Translations under genes and position numbers: made by a program
The notes under the pieces: generated by a model
Seen by the model: the letters and a program-made list of their open reading frames with translations, nothing else
The model's database searches: none
Told to the model about the DNA's origin: nothing
Shown here: piece by piece, positions 3,837 through 23,453 of the stretch
Position numbering within the stretch: position 1 is the first letter of the stretch
Layout of the letters: each line of letters begins with the position of its first letter
Source: Morganella psychrotolerans
GTDB lineage: Bacteria > Pseudomonadota > Gammaproteobacteria > Enterobacterales > Enterobacteriaceae
Length of the DNA stretch: 64,000 bases
Assembly (NCBI RefSeq): GCF_001676055.1
Contig: NZ_LZEX01000006.1
Coordinates: forward strand, 1-64,000
Reading direction: 5' to 3'

Positions 3837-5147
3837 ATGAAAACACAGGCACTGACAGTCGCCATGAACGGCGATGTGGTAGGCACACTGTATCGGGATG
3901 GTACGGGTGCTATGTCATTCGAATACACGCCGGAATGGCTGTCTGAGCCCGGTTCCCGAGCTATTTCATTATCATTGCCCCTTCAGCACAACAGAATCAG
4001 GGGTAAGGAAGTATTTAATTTCTTCAGTAACCTGCTGCCGGATTCAGAGGTGATTATTGCCAGGATGCAGGCACGGTTCCATGTTGATACAACTCACCCG
4101 TTTGATCTGCTGGCAAGTGTCGGGCGTGACTGCGTGGGCGCAATTCAGTTGTATCCGTCGGGCAGTGACATTCCGTCTGTCATGGAAACACGGGCTGAGC
4201 CGCTGGATGATCATCAGATTGAAACACTGCTTGATGGCTATCAGACGGCACCTTTAGGGATGGAAGAAGGCGCTGATTTCCGGATTTCTTTAGCCGGAGC
4301 TCAGGAAAAAACAGCACTGCTCTGGTATCAGAACTGCTGGCAGCGACCACAAGGCAGTACACCTACCAGTCATATTTTTAAGCTCCCGATTGGGCGGATA
4401 GAACAGAATAATATCGACCTGCGGGAAAGCTGCGAAAATGAATGGCTGTGTTTGCGTATAGCCAAAGCATTTGGATTCCCGGCGGCTGATGCTGAATTAG
4501 CCGTATTTGGTCAGAAAAAGGTACTGATCGTCAGGCGCTTTGATCGGAAGTGGTCAGAGAATGGCTGGCTGATGCGGTTGCCTCAAGAGGATTTTTGCCA
4601 GGCTCTGGGAGTATCTCCGGCACTGAAATATGAGTCACATGGCGGTCCGGGAATAGCGGATGCAATGAATCTGTTGTTGGGCTCCCGCCTTGCCACACAA
4701 GACCGTGAATTATTTTTTAAATCACAGATTCTGTTCTGGATGCTGGCTGCAATTGATGGTCACGGGAAGAATTTCAGCCTGTTTATCGAGCCCGAAACAT
4801 CGTTCCGGATGACACCGCTTTATGATGTGATGTCTGCATTTCCTATTTTTGGCAGCAGGAGTATTCCGCTTAAAAAAGCCAAAATGGCAATGGCGTTATA
4901 CGGGAAAAATAAGCAGTATAATTTTGCGATGATACAGCCCCGGCATTTTATCAGTACCGCCGCACAAGTCGGATTTCCTCAGGATATTGCCCGTAAACTT
5001 ATGCTGGAAATGGCCTCTTACACAGGCACGGTGATCTCCACTGTAGCCACAGAGTTACCGGCTGATTTTCCGCAACACATCAGTGGCGCCATTTTCAAAG
5101 GGTTATCCGGGCAGGCTGCTAAAATCGTTAAATGGGTGCAAAATTAA
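3837..5147 (+). CDS. hipA: HipA serine/threonine-protein kinase toxin
   Basis: The 436-aa protein aligns along its full length with E. coli HipA (FNFFSNLLPDS, GAQEKTALL, RLPQEDFCQA, KYESHGGPGIA, DGHGKNFSLF). Confidence 0.95.
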   Translation: MKTQALTVAMNGDVVGTLYRDGTGAMSFEYTPEWLSEPGSRAISLSLPLQHNRIRGKEVFNFFSNLLPDSEVIIARMQARFHVDTTHPFDLLASVGRDCVGAIQLYPSGSDIPSVMETRAEPLDDHQIETLLDGYQTAPLGMEEGADFRISLAGAQEKTALLWYQNCWQRPQGSTPTSHIFKLPIGRIEQNNIDLRESCENEWLCLRIAKAFGFPAADAELAVFGQKKVLIVRRFDRKWSENGWLMRLPQEDFCQALGVSPALKYESHGGPGIADAMNLLLGSRLATQDRELFFKSQILFWMLAAIDGHGKNFSLFIEPETSFRMTPLYDVMSAFPIFGSRSIPLKKAKMAMALYGKNKQYNFAMIQPRHFISTAAQVGFPQDIARKLMLEMASYTGTVISTVATELPADFPQHISGAIFKGLSGQAAKIVKWVQN

Positions 5148-9261: not shown

Positions 9262-10521
9262 TTATCCGATCTCAAACTCATACGGCACCACAAACTCCCG
9301 GCTGACTGCATCCAGGTAATCACCCCACCATTGCATTATCAGTTTTCGTTCCACAATGTGTTCGGCTTTGTGAATATAGGCGGCGCGGACGGCATTGCGC
9401 TCCTGGTGGCTCATCTGCCGCTCTATCGCATCCCGTGACCATTTTCCTGATTCAATCAGTGCGCTGCACGCCATGGTGCGAAAACCATGACCGCACAGCT
9501 CCTTAGCAGTGTCGTATCCCATCGTCCGCAGGGCATTGTTCACCGTGTTCTCACTCATCGGTTTTATCAGGCTATGGTCGCCCGGGAAGAGCAGCTCGCC
9601 CTCTCCGCTTATTGTCCTGATTTCTGCCAGAACGGCCAGTGTCTGGCGCGACAGCGGCACAATATGCTCTGACTGCATTTTTGCACCACGATAGGAGAAT
9701 TTCACACCGGGAATCGGCGTACGCTCTGCCGGAATTATCCAGATGGCGCGTTCTGTGTCGAATTCAGACCAGCGGGCAAGACGGATTTCACTGGAGCGCG
9801 AAAACGTCAGCAGCGTAAACTGTATCGCCAGTTTGGTTAACCGGCGGCCGTTGTAATAATCCAGCTTTGTCAGCAGCTCCGGCAGCCGTTCCAGCCGCAG
9901 CGCCGGGCGGTGGGTCACACGCGGCGGCATCAGTGCTCCGGCCATGTCCTTCGCAGGATTGCGATCAATCACGCCGCACTGAACCGCATATCCCATGATA
10001 TCCGTGATCCGCTGCTTCAGCCGCGAGGCCAGCTCCAGACGATCATTCGCCTCTACAATCCGCAGCGGTACCAGTAAATCTTTGGTTTTCAGTTCCGCAA
10101 CATGCCGCTGACCTATCGCCGGGAGAATATGCTTTTCCATATCGCGCCAGATACGGTTAGCGTGCGTCTCTGACCAGCGCCGCCGTCTGAGCATCTGCTG
10201 CGACCATTCTCGCGCCATTTTCTCAAAGGTATTCAGCGCATCCTCTTCGGCTTCCTTCTCCGCGATACGCTTCTGCTTCGGGTGAATACCATCCAGTATC
10301 ATCAGACGGGCTTCATCGCGTTTATCACGGGCGCGTGACAGTGAAACCAGCGGATATGCGCCGAATGCTATCCGGCTCTCTTTGCCGTTGTATGCAAACT
10401 TAAAATACCAGCGCTTTGTACCAACCGGATTTACCTGAAGATAAAGGCCGTACTCGTCGGCCAGTTTGTACATCTTTTTACCAGGTTTTGCGTTCCTTGC
10501 TGCCATGTCACTTAATGCCAT
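9262..10521 (-). CDS. int: P4-type tyrosine integrase/recombinase, full length
   Basis: The 419-aa protein has a DUF4102 arm-binding N-terminus (MALSDMAARNAKPGKKMYKLAD...) and a catalytic C-terminal domain. It lies 1.9 kb from tRNA-Leu on the same strand. Confidence 0.95.
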   Translation of the reverse strand: MALSDMAARNAKPGKKMYKLADEYGLYLQVNPVGTKRWYFKFAYNGKESRIAFGAYPLVSLSRARDKRDEARLMILDGIHPKQKRIAEKEAEEDALNTFEKMAREWSQQMLRRRRWSETHANRIWRDMEKHILPAIGQRHVAELKTKDLLVPLRIVEANDRLELASRLKQRITDIMGYAVQCGVIDRNPAKDMAGALMPPRVTHRPALRLERLPELLTKLDYYNGRRLTKLAIQFTLLTFSRSSEIRLARWSEFDTERAIWIIPAERTPIPGVKFSYRGAKMQSEHIVPLSRQTLAVLAEIRTISGEGELLFPGDHSLIKPMSENTVNNALRTMGYDTAKELCGHGFRTMACSALIESGKWSRDAIERQMSHQERNAVRAAYIHKAEHIVERKLIMQWWGDYLDAVSREFVVPYEFEIG

Positions 10522-12396: not shown

Positions 12397-12413
12397 TTGA
12401 TTTCACTTAAGAA

Positions 12414-12495
12414 TGCCGAAGGCCGGAATCGAACCGGCACGCCCTAAAGCGGTTGATTTTGAATCAACTGCGTCTACCAATTCCGCCACTCCGGC
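12414..12495 (-). tRNA. leuX: tRNA-Leu (anticodon CAA), the leuX homologue. Its 3' end is reconstituted from island sequence and no CCA is encoded (the 3' trailer is TTC).
   Basis: It is 82 nt and matches E. coli leuX (GCCGGAGTGGCGGAATTGGTAGACGCAGTTGATTCAAAATCAACC...GTGCCGGTTCGATTCCGGCCTTCGGCA). The anticodon loop is TTCAAAA. Confidence 0.9.
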
Positions 12496-12523
12496 ACTGA
12501 AGTGTGTTCTCGATAACGGCGTT

Positions 12524-14150: not shown

Positions 14151-14954
14151 TCAGCAGCGGGCATGTTCCAGTACCGTTTTCATTAAAAAAGCATCAAGCG
14201 GCACGCTGTCACGATGCGATGATTTACCCGGAGAGTGTTCCGCGGTTTCTGCCAGCACATCCTGTATCAGTTTATCGATAGCCGGACGCCGTGCACCATA
14301 CAAACTTTCACCGGCTGATTTCTTCAGAGTCACAAGCGCGTTAATTTCATCACGGACTGTATCGTCAGTTACTGTGCCATCCACCAGCGTTTCAAATGCC
14401 ATCGGCGGCAGCCCTTTGCCGGCGGCTATCCAGCGTAGTGCCATTACCGGTCGCAATACATAAAAATACTTTTTCAGCCGGACCTGCTCTGCCAGTAAAT
14501 GCTCTTGCGTGTTGCGTTTTGCCATCGAAAGATAGTGCCAGCGCGCTTTATGTGAGGAATAAAACTGTGCTGCCAGCTCCGTTATTTCCCTGGTGAATGT
14601 TTCATCCTGATAATATATTACCGGAGAGCTGAGCCACTCAATCAGTGCGGGGTTAGAGTTTCTCAGCAGTTTCAGTGCTTTGGATAACTCCCAGCCCGCC
14701 ACATCCAGTTCATCATCTATCGGTTTTTCTATGACATCCCGCTTGCGATCAAGTGCGAGATACCAATCCGGCTGATGCACATAGATAAAACGCACATCAT
14801 AATCACTGTCCGGTGAGGCAAATCCCCATCCGCGACTACCTGATTCACAGGCGTACAACACTTTCACATGATGTGTTTTCTCTATCTCTGCCAATGTTTT
14901 TTTTATCCGCTCCCGCATTACGGCGCAAACGGCTTCATCATCTTTATCCGTCAT
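14151..14954 (-). CDS. Pol-beta superfamily nucleotidyltransferase (GS-X9-DxD motif ESGSRGWGFASPDSDYDVRF), last gene of the rtcB operon
   Basis: The 267-aa protein has a 4-nt gap to rtcB. This NTase family is often encoded next to RNA-repair genes. Confidence 0.75.
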   Translation of the reverse strand: MTDKDDEAVCAVMRERIKKTLAEIEKTHHVKVLYACESGSRGWGFASPDSDYDVRFIYVHQPDWYLALDRKRDVIEKPIDDELDVAGWELSKALKLLRNSNPALIEWLSSPVIYYQDETFTREITELAAQFYSSHKARWHYLSMAKRNTQEHLLAEQVRLKKYFYVLRPVMALRWIAAGKGLPPMAFETLVDGTVTDDTVRDEINALVTLKKSAGESLYGARRPAIDKLIQDVLAETAEHSPGKSSHRDSVPLDAFLMKTVLEHARC

Positions 14955-14958
14955 TTTT

Positions 14959-16185
14959 CTATCCTTTCACACACACTACCTGACGCAGTGTATGAACAAT
15001 TTCAACCAGGGATGACTGTGCGGCCATCACAGCATCAATATCTTTGTAAGCCATCGGGATCTCATCGATCACATCACTGTCTTTACGGCATTCCACATGG
15101 GCGGTGGCCTGTTTCTGGTCTGCGACTGAGAAGCGTTTTTTTGCCTCGGTACGGCTCATTACACGACCCGCTCCGTGGCTGCATGAGCAGAAACTCTCTT
15201 CATTTCCCAACCCGCGCACAATATAGCTTTTGGCACCCATAGAGCCCGGGATAATTCCCATCTGCCCTTTACGGGCGGATACCGCCCCTTTACGTGTAAC
15301 CAGGATTTCCTCACCGAAATGCTGTTCTTTCTGCACATAGTTATGATGGCAATTCACCGCTTCCTGCTGTGTGGTAAAAGGCCTGGTGATTTCACGGGAC
15401 AAGGCTTCCAGCACCCGGTGCATCATCACTTCCCGGTTATGGCGGGCAAAATCCTGTGCCCAGCCGACTGCTTCCATATAATCATTAAAATACACACTTC
15501 CCTCTTCAAAATACGCAAGATCACGATCCGGCAGATTGGCAATATGTGTCTGCATATCTTTCTGTGCCAGCGAGATAAACAAGTTTCCGATAGCATTACC
15601 GACCCCGCGCGAACCGCTGTGTAACATCACCCACACGAAACTGCTTTCATCCAGGCACAGTTCAATAAAATGATTCCCTGTGCCGAGTGTTCCCAGATGC
15701 TTATAGTTATTGGTATTACGTAACGCAGGATATTTATCGCAGATACGTTTAAACCCGGCATCCAGATGCATCCAGTGGCTGTCCACAATGTCCGGTGTAT
15801 CACGCCAGCTTCCTTTATCCCGTCCGTGACGCTGAGTGGTTCGTCCGTGAGGAACCGCCGCTTCAATGGCAAAACGGATATTTTGCAGATTGTCCGGCAG
15901 ATCGGTTGCCGTCAGTGATGTTTTCACTGCAATCATTCCGCAACCGATATCCACCCCGACAGCTGCCGGGATAATCGCACCTTTGGTCGGGATCACGCTG
16001 CCGATAGTTGATCCTTTCCCGACATGCACATCCGGCATCACGGCAAGATGCTTAAAAATAAACGGCATTTTTGCGGTGTTCTGCAACTGAATAACCGCTT
16101 TCGGATCCACCGGAACACCATTGGTCCACAATTTTACCGGCGCACTGTTTTCCTGAATTAATTCATTGAAACCATTACTGAACAT
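14959..16185 (-). CDS. rtcB: RtcB RNA 3'-phosphate/2',3'-cyclic phosphate ligase
   Basis: The 408-aa protein is about 80% identical by eye to E. coli RtcB along its whole length. Confidence 0.95.
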   Translation of the reverse strand: MFSNGFNELIQENSAPVKLWTNGVPVDPKAVIQLQNTAKMPFIFKHLAVMPDVHVGKGSTIGSVIPTKGAIIPAAVGVDIGCGMIAVKTSLTATDLPDNLQNIRFAIEAAVPHGRTTQRHGRDKGSWRDTPDIVDSHWMHLDAGFKRICDKYPALRNTNNYKHLGTLGTGNHFIELCLDESSFVWVMLHSGSRGVGNAIGNLFISLAQKDMQTHIANLPDRDLAYFEEGSVYFNDYMEAVGWAQDFARHNREVMMHRVLEALSREITRPFTTQQEAVNCHHNYVQKEQHFGEEILVTRKGAVSARKGQMGIIPGSMGAKSYIVRGLGNEESFCSCSHGAGRVMSRTEAKKRFSVADQKQATAHVECRKDSDVIDEIPMAYKDIDAVMAAQSSLVEIVHTLRQVVCVKG

Positions 16186-17312
16186 TATTGAACATCCTTA
16201 ATTTTTACCAATCCGTTCATTACCTGATCCAGTCCGCCGTAAACAGAAATCTGATCGATACGATGTGCGATACTTTCCAGCATTTCCAGCTCTTTCAGCC
16301 GTAATGCCACCGGGTTATTTTCCATCACTTTCGCCGTATTGAGCAGCGAGCGTGTCGCAGCAGTCTCTTCACGACGACGGATAACATTGGCCTGAGCTGA
16401 TTTTTCAGCTTCAACGACCTGCGATAAAATAGTGCGCATTTCGCCCGGTAAAATAATATCTTTCACCCCGGCAGACGCAACTTCCAGCCCGAACGGAATG
16501 GTTGAATCTGCTATCTGTGCAAGCACCAGCTCATCAATTAACCGCTTGTTTTCCAACAATTCATCCAGAGTCCGGGTACCGACAACTTCGCGCAGCGCAA
16601 ACTGTAATTCACGATAGAGATGCTCTGCCGGCTTACTCAGCTGTGAAAATGCCTGTAAAATATCGGTATAGCGCCAGTTAGCGGATAAGTTAATCCGCAA
16701 TGTCACTTTATCGCGGGTCAGAATTTCCTGACCACCGACGTCCAGTGATTGCAAACGGGTGTCGATCACATCTGCTTCCGGCTTATGGTCCGTACACCAG
16801 TAACCGTAAGTGCCGGGTGCCAGCAATGAATCCACTTCGCCGTCAATTTTCAGTACGCCCGTATGCCATGCCGGGATCTGAACGATCAGCACAAGTTCTG
16901 ATCCCTTTACTTTCTGTTTTCCGCGGGTCAGGCGGGATAATAATGTGTCATCCACTCTAATATTTCCGGTTACCTGAGTCTCCGCCCGCAAGCTGTTACC
17001 CTTCTTCCAGTACAGACGACGACCGCCGGATGGTAAAATTTCTGTCAATGTATCATGCAGATACAAAAAGCCTGTTTCATCATCTGCCGGACAGAGATCA
17101 ACACAATATTCAGTTACCCATTGCGGATGATACTCGCGCAAGTGCTCCGCCAGTTTTGTATCGATCGGCGCGGCCCCCGGTTCAAAAGTTGTCACTGTCA
17201 GTTTATTGAACCAGTCATTAAGACGGTGCTCTCCTGCCGGTAAAATAGCCTGAAAATTCCCGTTTTTTTCAACTAATGCGATTGTTCCCTGGGCAATTGT
17301 TATTTTTTTCAT
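16185..17312 (-). CDS. SPFH/band-7 (slipin/stomatin-like) domain protein with a ~170-aa N-terminal domain and no obvious TM helix. It is the first gene of the RtcR-controlled operon.
   Basis: The C-terminal half has the SPFH signature (KDIILPGEMRTILSQVVEAEKSAQANVIRRREETAATRSLLNTAKV...LRLKELEMLE). The stop overlaps the rtcB start (ATGA). Confidence 0.8.
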   Translation of the reverse strand: MKKITIAQGTIALVEKNGNFQAILPAGEHRLNDWFNKLTVTTFEPGAAPIDTKLAEHLREYHPQWVTEYCVDLCPADDETGFLYLHDTLTEILPSGGRRLYWKKGNSLRAETQVTGNIRVDDTLLSRLTRGKQKVKGSELVLIVQIPAWHTGVLKIDGEVDSLLAPGTYGYWCTDHKPEADVIDTRLQSLDVGGQEILTRDKVTLRINLSANWRYTDILQAFSQLSKPAEHLYRELQFALREVVGTRTLDELLENKRLIDELVLAQIADSTIPFGLEVASAGVKDIILPGEMRTILSQVVEAEKSAQANVIRRREETAATRSLLNTAKVMENNPVALRLKELEMLESIAHRIDQISVYGGLDQVMNGLVKIKDVQ

Positions 17313-17490
17313 TATTTTTCCTTTTCATTTTATGAGCCACGACCGGACACAAATACAGTATCGCGGGGGAAACCACAGAGGACCGGAGGCTGTCTGTCGT
17401 TCTGCCCGCCACCCGGTATGACAGCCGGGCCGTGGTGTGCGGCTCTGCGTTCAGCCGCGTGAAAACTGCTTTATGTTTACTGCATAAGGA

Positions 17491-17528
17491 GGTGATTCAG
17501 GATTCGAACCTGATAAAGCCATATCACC
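17491..17528 (-). ncRNA. tRNA-like minihelix in the rtc operon leader: GGTGAT-ATGGCTTTA-[TCAGG TTCGAAT CCTGA]-ATCACC (acceptor-like stem plus a perfect T-arm). Possible Y-RNA-like or tRNA-like element.
   Basis: A GGTTCGAATCC T-loop consensus flanked by 5-bp and 6-bp stems, inside a 330-nt untranslated leader between the sigma54 promoter and the first ORF. Confidence 0.3.
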
Positions 17529-17639
17529 GGGAACTGCGCGGACAAAACGGAATACAGATAATGAAACGGCATTGCCGCCACCTCTGCACCGGTCGGGCGT
17601 AAAGCCCAGACAATTTCTGTCAGTGCGGTACAGGTAATA

Positions 17640-17657
17640 TTGCGATAAGCGTGCCAG
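17640..17657 (-). promoter_or_regulatory. sigma54 (-24/-12) promoter TGGCACG-CTTA-TCGCA, driving the SPFH-rtcB-NTase operon
   Basis: One mismatch to TGGCACG-N4-TTGCW. It is divergent from the rtcR start about 170 bp away. Confidence 0.6.
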
Positions 17658-17824
17658 TTTTATAAATTTCAAAAATATTTTTATAACATATTGATATTTA
17701 ACATATATTTATTTTTGTGATTTTATCCGTGCCATTGGGATATAAAATGACTTATGCTTATTACTATCCTGTAATATCGTGTTTTATCCTGAAAAATAAA
17801 TTCCGGTGATTGTGAAAATCAATA

Positions 17825-19403
17825 ATGAAAAAGAAAGTTGTGATAGGGGTTCTGGGTACGGTCTTAGACCGGCGGGGAAAAAGAGCTAACCGCTGGAATA
17901 AGTGGCGGCCGAGTGTCGGATTGTGCCAGCAGCCGGATCTGAATATTGATCGCTTTGAACTTATTTATCAGGCCGATAATTTACAGACAGCGGAACGGGT
18001 AAAAGAGGATATCGGGCAGGTATCATCACAAACAGAAGTGATGCTGCATAAGGTCAATATTGCCGACCCGTGGGACTTTGAACAGGTTTATACCGCGCTC
18101 CGGGATTTCGCCGCACACTATCCGTTCGATACAGAAAATGAAGAGTATCTGGTGCATATCACCACCGGGACGCATGTGGTTCAGATTTGCTGGTTCCTGC
18201 TGACTGAAGCCAGTTATCTGCCCGCCCGGCTTATTCAGACCGCCCCCCGCCATGAATCGGGAGATACCGGCCCCGGGGGTGTGTATACCATTATTGACCT
18301 CGACCTCCGTCGCTATACACAGATAACAGGGCGCTTTCAGAAAGAGCAACAAGCTCAGGTCGCTTTCCTGAAGTCCGGTATCGCCACCCGTAATGCCGCG
18401 TTCAACAAGACAATCGATAAAATTGAACGCGTTGCCCTGCGCTCTGCCGCACCGGTTCTGCTGACCGGACCGACAGGTGCCGGGAAATCATTTCTCGCAA
18501 AACGGATATATGAGCTGCGCCGTAACCGTCATCAGGTAAAAGGTCGCTTTGTGGAAGTCAATTGTGCCACACTGCGCGGCGACAACGCGATGTCCGCACT
18601 GTTCGGTCATGTAAAAGGGGCATTTACCGGGGCTATTCAGGCGCGCGGTGGATTACTGAAAGAGGCTGACGGCGGGATACTGTTTCTCGATGAAATAGCT
18701 GAACTGGGAGCCGATGAGCAGGCCATGCTGCTCAAAGCCATTGAAGAAAAACGTTTTTTTCCCTTACGGATCTGACTATGAGACAGAAAGTGATTTTGCC
18801 CTGATAGCAGGAACTCACCGTAATCTGGCACAAAGGGTCAGTGAAGGGCATTTCCGGGAAGATTTATACGCCCGTATCAATATGTGGACATTTACCCTGC
18901 CCGGATTGGCACATCGGCGGGAAGATATCGAGCCGAATGTCGATTATGAGCTGGCAAAATACAGCCGTGATCAGCAAACAAGCGTCCGCTTTGATAGCGA
19001 TGCCCGGCAAATTTATCTGGCTTTTTCCTGTTCACCGCAGGCTCTGTGGCGCGGTAATTTTCGTGAACTGGGAGCATCTGTCACCCGCATGGCGACCTTT
19101 GCAGAAAGCGGACGAATTACAACGGCGCTGGTGCAGGAAGAGATTGAGAGACTGGAAAGTCAGTGGGAAGGTCTTCAGGAAAACAGCAATCTGCCCGCCG
19201 GGATAGGCGACATTGATCTGTTCGACCGCCGGCAGCTGGAAACCGTGATTGCGGTCTGCCGCCGCTCCCGGACATTGTCAGATGCCGGACGCGCTCTGTT
19301 TGCTGTCTCCCGTCAGCAGAAGAAGCAACCTAATGATGCTGACCGGCTGCGTAAATACCTCGCCCGGTTTAATCTCGACTGGGAACAGATAACAAATAAC
19401 TGA
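17825..19403 (+). pseudogene. rtcR: RtcR sigma54-dependent transcriptional activator (CARF + AAA+ + HTH), split into 316-aa and 229-aa ORFs by a +1 shift in a T7 run (18754-18760)
   Basis: Both halves align with E. coli RtcR (GAFTGA-like VKGAFTGA, ...EEKRFFP | YGSD...DADRLRKYLARF). The true sequence appears to be T6. Confidence 0.85.
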
Positions 19404-21941: not shown

Positions 21942-23453
21942 ATGGAGTTTAGTGTAAAAAGCGGCAGTCCGGAAAAGCAACGCAGTGCTTGTATTGTGGT
22001 CGGCATTTTCGAACCGCGTCGTCTGTCCCCGGTTGTGGAACAGCTCGATAAAATCAGCGACGGCTACATCAGTGCTCTGCTGCGCCGCGGCGAGCTGGAG
22101 GGCAAGGTCGGGCAGTCTCTGCTTCTGCACCATGTCCCGAATGTCCTGTCCGAGCGCATCCTGTTAATCGGCTGCGGAAAAGAACGCGAGCTGGATGAGC
22201 GCCAGTACAAACAGATTATTCAGAAAACCATCAGCACCCTGAACGAAACCGGGTCGATGGAAGCGGTCTGTTTTTTGACTGAGTTGCATGTCAAAGGACG
22301 CAACAATTACTGGAAAGTAAGACAAGCTGTTGAAACAGCAAAAGAATCTCTCTATGTCTTTGATCAGCTGAAAAGCAATAAAACCGAATTACGCCGCCCG
22401 CTGCGTAAACTGGTCTTCAATGTCCCTACCCGCCGCGAACTGCCTGCCGGTGAGAAAGCGATCAGCCATGGTCTGGCCATTTCTGCCGGTATCAAAGCGG
22501 CAAAAGATCTGGCGAATATGCCGCCGAACATCTGTAACGCGGCTTACCTCGCGTCGCAGGCGCGCCAGCTGGCAGACAATCACTCATCTGTCCTCAGCAC
22601 CCGGGTTATCGGTGAAGAGCAGATGAAAGAGCTGGGAATGCTGGCGTATCTGGCGGTCGGCCAGGGGTCACGCAATGAATCACTGATGTCGGTGATTGAG
22701 TATAAAGGTAATCCGGATCCGGAAGCACGACCGATTGTATTAGTCGGAAAAGGGCTGACGTTCGACTCCGGCGGTATTTCTATCAAACCAGCCGATGGCA
22801 TGGATGAGATGAAATATGACATGTGCGGCGCGGCAACTGTCTACGGCGTAATGCGGATGGTGGCTGAACTGAGTCTGCCGCTCAATGTGGTCGGGATCCT
22901 GGCGGGATGTGAAAACATGCCGGGCAGCAATGCCTATCGTCCGGGGGATATCCTCACCACCATGTCAGGTCAGACTGTCGAAGTGCTTAATACGGATGCA
23001 GAAGGCCGCCTGGTGCTGTGTGATGCGCTGACTTACGTGGAGCGTTTCGAGCCGGAAACCGTGATTGATATCGCGACCCTGACCGGTGCCTGTATGGTCG
23101 CACTGGGTAACCATTTCAGTGGTCTGATGGCAAATCACAATCCGCTGGCGCACGAGTTGCTGAATGCGTCTGAACAAGCCGGTGACCGCGCATGGCGGCT
23201 GCCGCTGGCAGATGAGTTCTACGAGCAAATCGAGTCGAACTTTGCGGATCTTGCCAATACCGGCGGGCGTCTGGGTGGCGCGATTACCGCAGGTTGCTTC
23301 CTGTCACGCTTTACAACGCGCTATAATTGGGCGCACCTGGATATTGCCGGTACGGCATGGCGTTCAGGAAAAAATAAAGGCGCAACAGGTCGTCCGGTTG
23401 CACTGCTGGCACAATTCCTGTTAAATCGTGCGGGTATCAGCACCGACGACTGA
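21942..23453 (+). CDS. pepA: leucyl aminopeptidase / PepA (also a carAB and Xer cofactor)
   Basis: The 503-aa protein is near-identical to E. coli PepA. Confidence 0.95.

Follow-up and report, generated by a model that had tools for sequence, protein, structure and literature searches.

A conserved tRNA-like minihelix in the structured leader of a slipin-RtcB-RlaP RNA-repair operon of Morganella psychrotolerans

Our study concerns a stretch of 64,000 nucleotides (nt) from Morganella psychrotolerans (assembly GCF_001676055.1, contig NZ_LZEX01000006.1, positions 1 to 64,000 of the forward strand), which is referred to as the window, and in particular a tRNA-like minihelix in the leader of an RNA-repair operon that it contains. 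The operon lies on the minus strand, encodes a slipin, the RNA ligase RtcB and the nucleotidyltransferase RlaP, and is divergent from the regulatory gene rtcR. A previous reading of the bare sequence (the original prediction) had placed a module made of an acceptor-like stem and a canonical T-arm in the leader of this RtcR/sigma54-dependent operon, and we identified the same module, conserved, in related organisms. The locus is organized as follows, with all positions given as those of the window.

17825..19403, plus strand: rtcR, divergent, with a CARF-type RtcR domain and a sigma54 AAA+ activator domain (Pfam RtcR and Sigma54_activat).
17641..17656, minus strand: sigma54 (-24/-12) promoter TGGCAC-N5-TCGCA, recognized by its sequence and its GG-N10-GC spacing.
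17313..17630, minus strand: structured leader of about 318 nt, from the inferred transcription start (+1) to the slipin ATG at 17312.
17491..17528, minus strand: the whole tRNA-like minihelix, delimited by sequence, folding, the covariance model R1 and covariation.
16185..17312, minus strand: slipin (SPFH/Band_7) gene, the first of the operon, 375 amino acids (aa), Pfam Band_7 at 4e-23.
14959..16185, minus strand: rtcB RNA ligase gene, 408 aa, Pfam RtcB at 9e-133.
14151..14954, minus strand: rlaP (PF10127) nucleotidyltransferase gene, 267 aa, Pfam RlaP at 3.5e-94.

Based on the usual geometry of -24/-12 promoters, transcription would start near 17630; the long leader expected downstream of the sigma54 promoter is therefore present, with a length of about 318 nt from this start instead of the approximately 330 nt first proposed. 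The minihelix begins about 100 nt into the leader, and the minus-strand sequence predicted for it (17528-17491) agrees base for base with the one that we found. Its parts, together with the nucleotides that follow it, are listed below.

17528-17523, minus strand: 5' strand of the acceptor-like stem, GGUGAU.
17522-17514, minus strand: 9-nt linker containing GG, AUGGCUUUA.
17513-17509, minus strand: 5' strand of the T-stem, UCAGG.
17508-17502, minus strand: T-loop, UUCGAAU.
17501-17497, minus strand: 3' strand of the T-stem, CCUGA.
17496-17491, minus strand: 3' strand of the acceptor-like stem, AUCACC.
17485..17490, minus strand: 3' tail UCCUUA, in the place of the N-CCA of a tRNA; with the acceptor 3' strand it reads AUCACCUCCUUA.

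Several analyses single out this site within the window. The 64 kb contain the T-arm motif GGTTCRANYCC at four places, namely three genuine tRNAs and the minihelix, while 0.47 occurrences are expected in shuffled sequence and none of 100 shuffles reached four. When folded alone, a 47-nt segment adopts the proposed minihelix in 91% of the ensemble, and the minihelix is also present in both the minimum free energy (MFE) structure and the centroid of the full leader folded from the inferred +1. A fold begun 10 nt upstream of the likely start pairs the acceptor strand elsewhere, which we regard as an artefact of including untranscribed bases. The model R1, a covariance model built from seven beta-proteobacterial minihelices and from no enterobacterial sequence, matches positions 17529-17486 over its full length (26.8 bits, E=2.9e-5); this is its sole significant match in the window, and on the genuine tRNAs of the window it aligns with the T-arm only, at E of about 1. 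ARAGORN identified three tRNAs in the window, none of them at the minihelix, and Rfam gave no match, its tRNA model included, either at the gathering score over the leader or at E<=10 over positions 17250-17750.

The comparison with related organisms included 91 loci: 80 obtained from an alignment of slipin homologues with one genome per species, ten from an exact protein look-up, and the window itself. At least one T-loop motif lies between the promoter and the slipin gene in 88 of these 91 leaders, which come from gamma- and beta-proteobacteria, and most of the loci inspected for a promoter have a TGGCAC-N5-YYGCW element at a distance of 315-590 nt upstream of the slipin gene. The T-stems covary among them (UCAGG/CCUGA, CCGGG/CCCGG, GCAGG/CCUGC, AAGGG/CCCUU and AUAGG/CCUAU). 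MAFFT misaligned the 5' acceptor strands, whose linkers range from 9 to 30 nt, and was replaced by N-padded fixed-register alignments and by covariance-model alignments. In the fixed-register alignment of 46 distinct minihelices, 92% of the cells are paired and ten of the 12 pairs have changed on both sides; none of 500 shuffles reached these values, and sliding the 3' partner reduced pairing to 36-55%. Pair counts on the covariance-model alignment agree, so that over both alignments 91-92% of the cells are paired and slid controls give 36-56%. Since the 5' strand had been picked by its complementarity, a permutation control was added: of the 57 T-arms without a D-arm, 30 have a partner forming at least six contiguous pairs within 6-32 nt, and 200 permutations gave at most 14.

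When R1 was run on 90 sources, approximately 40 full-length matches appeared at the expected position of the leader, including those of Moellerella, Xenorhabdus szentirmaii, Erwinia, Franconibacter, Superficieibacter and Mangrovibacter. Within the Morganellaceae the acceptor stems differ in a compensatory manner, being GGUGAU/AUCACC in Morganella, AGCGAA/UUCGCU in Moellerella, UCGAAU/AUUCGA in X. szentirmaii and GGUG/CACC in Proteus, and the whole leader can be aligned across 18 loci of Enterobacterales. The alignment of orthologous loci thus shows helices that are conserved and covarying, which contradicts the simple objection, raised with the original prediction, that they might not be preserved in related genomes.

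The minihelix is the smallest form in a series of tRNA-like units that changes from lineage to lineage. Leaders of Pseudomonas have two complete cloverleafs that directly abut each other and are called as tRNAs by ARAGORN and partly by Rfam. In beta-proteobacteria the first unit is a minihelix, with an acceptor stem of 6-7 bp, a linker of 12-30 nt (usually with UGGUG or UGGGG), a T-arm and an acceptor 3' strand that is often followed by NCCA, and the second unit is a complete cloverleaf. The Enterobacterales examined have the minihelix only and a full cloverleaf in no case; their linker is of the type ..GG(Y)UUWWN, and in several of them the tail after the acceptor reads A-CCU. In Klebsiella, Citrobacter and Phytobacter (L009, L010, L011, L012, L015 and L017), a closed hairpin that covaries, with stems such as UUCAC/GUGAA, CUCACC/GGUGA and UUCAUU/AAUGAA, comes after the T-arm about 190-220 nt upstream of the slipin gene, and the conserved sequence ACUGGUUG comes next. 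This is a permuted order like that of the RNA YrlA, and one further leader (L014) could form either arrangement. The cloverleaf-type homologues are called with at least 29 different 'anticodons', many of them in loops of 6 or 8 nt.

The element always precedes a slipin (Band-7) gene, whose product is its predicted protein partner, and does so even where rtcB is missing. Moellerella wisconsensis (L084) has rtcR, a leader with the minihelix and the slipin gene, followed by ParE and TraY-like genes, with neither rtcB nor rlaP, and Hafnia (L090) has the slipin gene and rlaP without rtcB. The leader RNA travels with the slipin gene rather than with rtcB, and the 'orphan' status suggested for it is therefore not upheld.

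The leader has at least three parts that are structured and conserved, and the minihelix is the one among them that the original prediction had noticed. The leader as a whole has an MFE of -113.3 kcal/mol (z = -2.8 against shuffles), and its remaining domains are the following.

17536..17626, minus strand: module A, the 5' domain, identified with RNAalifold, pair counts and the MFE structure of the window leader.
17471..17487, minus strand: small hairpin UUAUG-CAGUAAA-CAUAA right after the tRNA-like unit, recognized by eye only; the MFE structure of the window leader pairs this stretch differently.
17326..17470, minus strand: module C, the 3' domain, a long irregular stem GGGCAGAA ... UUUCCCC that starts with AGCAGU and ends before the Shine-Dalgarno sequence, identified with RNAalifold and the MFE structure.

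Module A is made up of a closing helix, a bulged hairpin P2 (17611-17592) and, at 17591-17548, a helix P3, CGG-UGC/..-CCG, capped by a long hairpin; the consensus of P3 is CGG-NGC/GCN-NN-CCG. On 29 gamma- and beta-proteobacterial leaders, RNAalifold identified compensatory changes in 14 of its 19 pairs, and in the pair counts on the same leaders 93% of the cells are paired and 15 of 19 pairs have changed on both sides (0 of 500 shuffles; slid controls 41-50%). Its helices also appear in the MFE structure of the window leader. For module C, RNAalifold on 19 leaders of Enterobacterales found compensatory changes in 15 of the 19 predicted pairs, and its anchor GCAGUACCCG is common to Enterobacterales, Pseudomonas and beta-proteobacteria. 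Neither module matches an Rfam family, at E<=10 in the window or in the leaders of its relatives. By eye, a hairpin of other sequence, for example CUGCC-CAGUUAA-GGCAG, occupies the place equivalent to that of the small hairpin in Pseudomonas and beta-proteobacteria. A role of the leader as terminator or attenuator was considered and rejected: the single weak terminator-like hairpin, located in module A, is within chance expectation.

It is against this background that the identity of the minihelix can be considered. We judge it very probable that it is a reduced member of the tRNA-like units found in leaders of RtcR/sigma54-dependent slipin(Band-7)-RtcB-RlaP operons. By position and homology we file it as a reduced variant of b7a-tRNA ('band 7-associated tRNA'), a class predicted by Burroughs & Aravind 2016 according to the secondary description in 10.1101/312249. 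Both lie beside a Band-7/SPFH gene in an RtcB repair locus under RtcR, both have a canonical T-arm and no normal CCA end, and Pseudomonas, Burkholderiales and the window share the order promoter, module A, tRNA-like unit or units, hairpin, module C and slipin gene. The difference is one of completeness: in the relevant passages of 10.1101/312249 a b7a-tRNA 'strongly resembles an authentic tRNA', whereas the window minihelix has no D-stem and no anticodon arm, nine nucleotides taking the place of the D-arm, the anticodon arm and the variable region. Within the class it corresponds to the minihelix that forms unit 1 in beta-proteobacteria, not to the cloverleaf of unit 2. An example of the class is PA4581.1 ('tRNA-Arg4') of Pseudomonas aeruginosa, which lies between rtcR and PA4582-PA4585 and lacks CCA (PMC13637947).

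Other tRNA-shaped RNAs resemble the minihelix to a lesser extent. A canonical tRNA gene was rejected, given the missing cloverleaf, the negative results of ARAGORN and of the Rfam tRNA model, and the unconserved anticodons of the cloverleaf homologues. With the tRNA-like domain of tmRNA and with tRNA minihelices it shares an acceptor coaxial with the T-arm, a reduced GG-bearing substitute for the D-loop and the absence of an anticodon arm; it differs in being internal to an mRNA leader and in its tail, which in Morganella is UCCU and not NCCA. We know of no SmpB-like partner for it. Acceptor/T-arm minihelices are minimal substrates of RNase P, of the CCA-adding enzyme and of some aminoacyl-tRNA synthetases. 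Excision of tRNA-like structures from longer transcripts by RNase P is described for mascRNA/MALAT1 and for sites in bacterial polycistronic mRNAs in passages of 10.1101/312249; here too a tRNA-shaped module lies inside a longer transcript, and its excision could both release a small RNA and set the end of the flanking RNA, but those cases are complete cloverleafs or unrelated sequences.

The comparison with Y RNAs, already suggested by the original prediction, holds as an analogy between tRNA-like domains, which is also drawn in the passages of 10.1101/312249 concerned, and not as membership in the YrlA/Y RNA family. YrlA, the subject of Chen et al. 2014 and Wang et al. 2018, is likewise a tRNA mimic of an RtcR-controlled operon with RtcB; it has a T-arm together with a stacked acceptor-like helix and lacks a free canonical CCA end. 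It is circularly permuted, in the order T stem-loop, closed acceptor stem-loop and D stem-loop, and its 5' and 3' ends form an anticodon-like stem that binds Ro (10.1101/312249). The window minihelix, in contrast, follows the order of a tRNA (acceptor 5' strand, linker, T-arm, acceptor 3' strand) and lacks a D stem-loop, a terminal stem and an rsr partner. The Rfam covariance models for Y_RNA, YrlA and tRNA, suggested as a means of checking the element, gave no match even at E<=10 (the gathering score of the YrlA model, RF02553, is 69 bits). The remark that no rsr gene is present was accurate for what was scanned: a TROVE/Rsr domain was found neither among the operon neighbours (LptF/G, RtcR, slipin, RtcB, RlaP and a beta-lactamase-family protein) nor in ten other open reading frames (ORFs) of at least 400 aa, a scan that leaves three large ORFs and all smaller ones outside.

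It is therefore very improbable, in our opinion, that the element is an orphan member of the YrlA family whose Rsr/Ro60 gene has been lost or lies elsewhere. This explanation would account for a tRNA-like module beside rtcB, for the YrlA-like order in the Klebsiella, Citrobacter and Phytobacter leaders, and for a sub-threshold YrlA match in a Pseudomonas sp. leader (L020, 2615-2666; 33 bits, E=0.001), the best in any homologous leader. Against it stand the strand order, the missing Ro-binding stem and TROVE gene, the consistent linkage to slipin instead, and the lack of any Rfam YrlA match in a Citrobacter leader (L012, E<=10) and in the whole L011 locus (E<=1). The match in L020 covers the T-arm of unit 1 together with the acceptor and D-arm of unit 2. 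In its permuted tRNA-like domain YrlA thus looks like the place where two tandem tRNA-like units meet, a hint that this may be how the domain arose. According to passages of 10.1101/312249, b7a-tRNA and YrlA sometimes swap partners and have been proposed to be functionally redundant.

As to its role, the explanation that we consider best as a whole, and rather likely, is that of a reduced tRNA-like unit in the operon leader with the function outlined here; the mechanism itself, that of a cofactor or decoy, is put forward tentatively, from sequence and comparison. The minihelix is transcribed from the RtcR-dependent promoter, provided that this promoter fires, and would be made only when the operon is transcribed, within a leader that also holds modules A and C. 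It represents the 'top half' of a tRNA, with the acceptor stem stacked on the T-arm, a GG linker replacing the D- and anticodon arms and a CC tail at the position of CCA, and would offer an elbow and an acceptor end like those of a tRNA to proteins that recognize tRNA shape. Possibly excised by tRNA-processing enzymes such as RNase P, or else still embedded in the leader, it might act as an RNA cofactor or decoy for slipin, RtcB or RlaP, by analogy with YrlA, which is thought to work in this way with Rsr in rsr-yrlBA-rtcBA operons. In beta-proteobacteria the next unit directly follows the NCCA end of the minihelix, an arrangement that points to release by tRNA-processing enzymes; this is less clear for the UCCU tail of Morganella. 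It has been reported that RtcR is activated by tRNA halves (PMC7790460) and that RlaP extends RNA 3' ends (PMC12776372), and the part of YrlA that resembles a tRNA has been suggested to be a competitive inhibitor of a tRNA nuclease (PMC7790460).

A more ambitious version, which we think unlikely, is that the leader is the precursor of a multi-domain stable RNA of an undescribed class, comprising module A, the tRNA top-half mimic and possibly module C, that would assemble with oligomeric slipin into an RtcB/RlaP repair particle. If true, such a slipin-RNA particle would correspond in bacteria to Ro60-Y RNA, or even to the vault, in which the SPFH-containing major vault protein is combined with vault RNA. 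In the major vault protein, too, beta repeats occur together with an SPFH-like shoulder and a long helix.

The sequence formed by the acceptor 3' strand and the tail, AUCACCUCCUUA (17485-17496, minus strand), is identical to the last 12 nt of enterobacterial 16S rRNA. RtcB has been reported to re-ligate the 16S 3' end after cleavage by MazF, and, as part of the same unlikely version, a copy of this end could serve as a decoy or guide for 16S 3'-end damage; the identity may also be a coincidence of tRNA-like ends of the form ..ACC-N-CC... The corresponding sequences in related minihelices are AUCACCUCCA (L044) and AUCACCACCUA (L027).

It is important to note that several observations weigh against a functional tRNA-like unit of this kind. 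The class itself is described as 'not validated experimentally' in the passages of 10.1101/312249 devoted to it, and PA4581.1, which by quantitative reverse transcription PCR reaches about half the level of ordinary tRNAs, does so independently of rtc induction (PMC13637947). Being devoid of a D-stem and an anticodon arm, the minihelix cannot mimic the substrate of an anticodon nuclease. The T-arm is absent in Providencia stuartii (L087) and Xenorhabdus hominickii (L089), whose leaders retain modules A and C; in Providencia rettgeri the acceptor pairing is gone; and in a Morganella relative that is 97% identical (L081), where two of the seven leader substitutions fall inside the 38-nt minihelix, the acceptor stem contains an uncompensated A.C mismatch. 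The tRNA-like element is consequently dispensable in some lineages. Finally, rtcR is split in the window into two overlapping ORFs (17825-18775 and 18714-19403) by a +1 frameshift, so the operon promoter may be silent in this strain, unless the frameshift is a read error.

These same losses, together with the absence of a full cloverleaf from all Enterobacterales examined and the frameshifted rtcR, are what would be expected if the Morganellaceae element were a functionless remnant of an ancestral tRNA-like unit, drifting away. We find this decidedly unlikely, since the T-loop, the 5-bp T-stem and a 4-6-bp acceptor are kept by compensatory changes in Morganella, Moellerella, X. szentirmaii, Proteus, Erwinia, Franconibacter, Superficieibacter and Mangrovibacter, a conservation that is not expected of neutral sequence over these distances, and many beta-proteobacteria have a minihelix beside an intact cloverleaf. 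The retention of modules A and C after loss of the T-arm speaks for a purely cis-acting leader, in which the minihelix and its CCUCCUU tail would control the translation or stability of slipin-rtcB-rlaP, through sequestration of the Shine-Dalgarno sequence or through trimming by RNase P or other tRNA enzymes, with no separate functional RNA. Structure and conservation that span the whole leader, beyond the minihelix, agree with such a leader, as does the lack of a terminator between the minihelix and the ORF, and in both the MFE structure and the centroid of the leader base pairs form between the slipin Shine-Dalgarno AAGGA and the UCCUU that directly follows the minihelix, with a similar 5-bp match in Erwinia and Franconibacter. 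The pairing is nevertheless short and is absent or different in most other loci, an inconsistency for which we rejected an anti-Shine-Dalgarno role. The beta-proteobacterial arrangement, in which an NCCA-ended minihelix abuts a second unit as in a tRNA operon, suggests discrete RNAs, and the level of PA4581.1, irrespective of rtc induction, also argues against control in cis alone. On balance, a purely cis-acting leader seems to us improbable.

We attach practically no weight to the idea of a tRNA-gene fragment that recombination or an integrating mobile element left behind, or of a chance match. There are a tRNA-Leu gene and a phage-type integrase at a distance of 5-8 kb, and integration sites do duplicate the T-arm and the acceptor 3' strand, but the minihelix has its own 5' acceptor strand and is found, with covarying stems, at the same leader position in dozens of genera from two classes; the tRNA-remnant or attachment-site idea was rejected on this comparative evidence, and the chance expectation is far below what was observed.

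RtcB/RtcR repair operons are widespread; broken tRNAs induce them, and they influence survival when DNA is damaged or when antibiotics target the ribosome. Our results show that the slipin-type operons carry a large, conserved and structured leader, whose tRNA-like part varies between two full cloverleafs and a bare acceptor/T-arm minihelix, with some lineages lacking any. Relative to the secondary description of b7a-tRNA, the class is known in outline, and the minimal form, two extra covarying domains and the repeated reduction or loss are new anatomy; modules A and C constitute additional RNA domains supported by covariation and without an Rfam family. The minimal form narrows what a partner would have to recognize, pointing to the tRNA elbow and acceptor end rather than to the anticodon, and provides small defined constructs for binding assays, RNase P cleavage and genetics.

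With regard to the genes of the locus, the frameshift in rtcR is due to an extra T in the homopolymer run 18748-18754, which has seven T residues in the window and six in the intact 525-aa rtcR of another M. psychrotolerans genome (L086). The gene could be a pseudogene, the run could be prone to slippage, or the extra T could be a sequencing error; if the frameshift is real, it leaves the sigma54 promoter of the operon without its activator. The gene neighbourhood of the window recurs in a related M. psychrotolerans genome. No PADLOC defence system matched the three operon proteins, and blastn of the leader against 5,426 Escherichia coli genomes gave no match. Homologues of the first operon protein carry the name 'slipin family protein', and some of them measure 515-524 aa versus the usual length of about 375 aa. 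The N-terminal portion of the window slipin, of about 115 residues, has no Pfam domain; the AlphaFold model is poor overall (predicted local distance difference test score, pLDDT, of 56), and this portion is all-beta with a pLDDT of 70-87. Foldseek searches with the model returned stomatin, HflK/C and prohibitin, and gave a weak match to the major vault protein. The model was intended to reveal an RNA-binding N-terminal domain, but it confirmed only the stomatin/HflK/prohibitin fold and supported no inference on RNA binding.

Two further observations concern other parts of the window. The tRNA-Leu(CAA) gene at 12413-12496 (minus strand) is adjoined by genes for a HipA-family kinase (3837-5147, plus strand) and a phage-type integrase (9262-10521, minus strand), a region that looks like a genomic island at a tRNA gene, unrelated to the rtc locus. 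In addition, an Rfam match to Ysr276 (Yersinia sRNA 276; 128 bits) was identified at 22500-22694 on the minus strand, antisense inside the leucyl aminopeptidase (Peptidase_M17) gene at 21942-23453 (plus strand).

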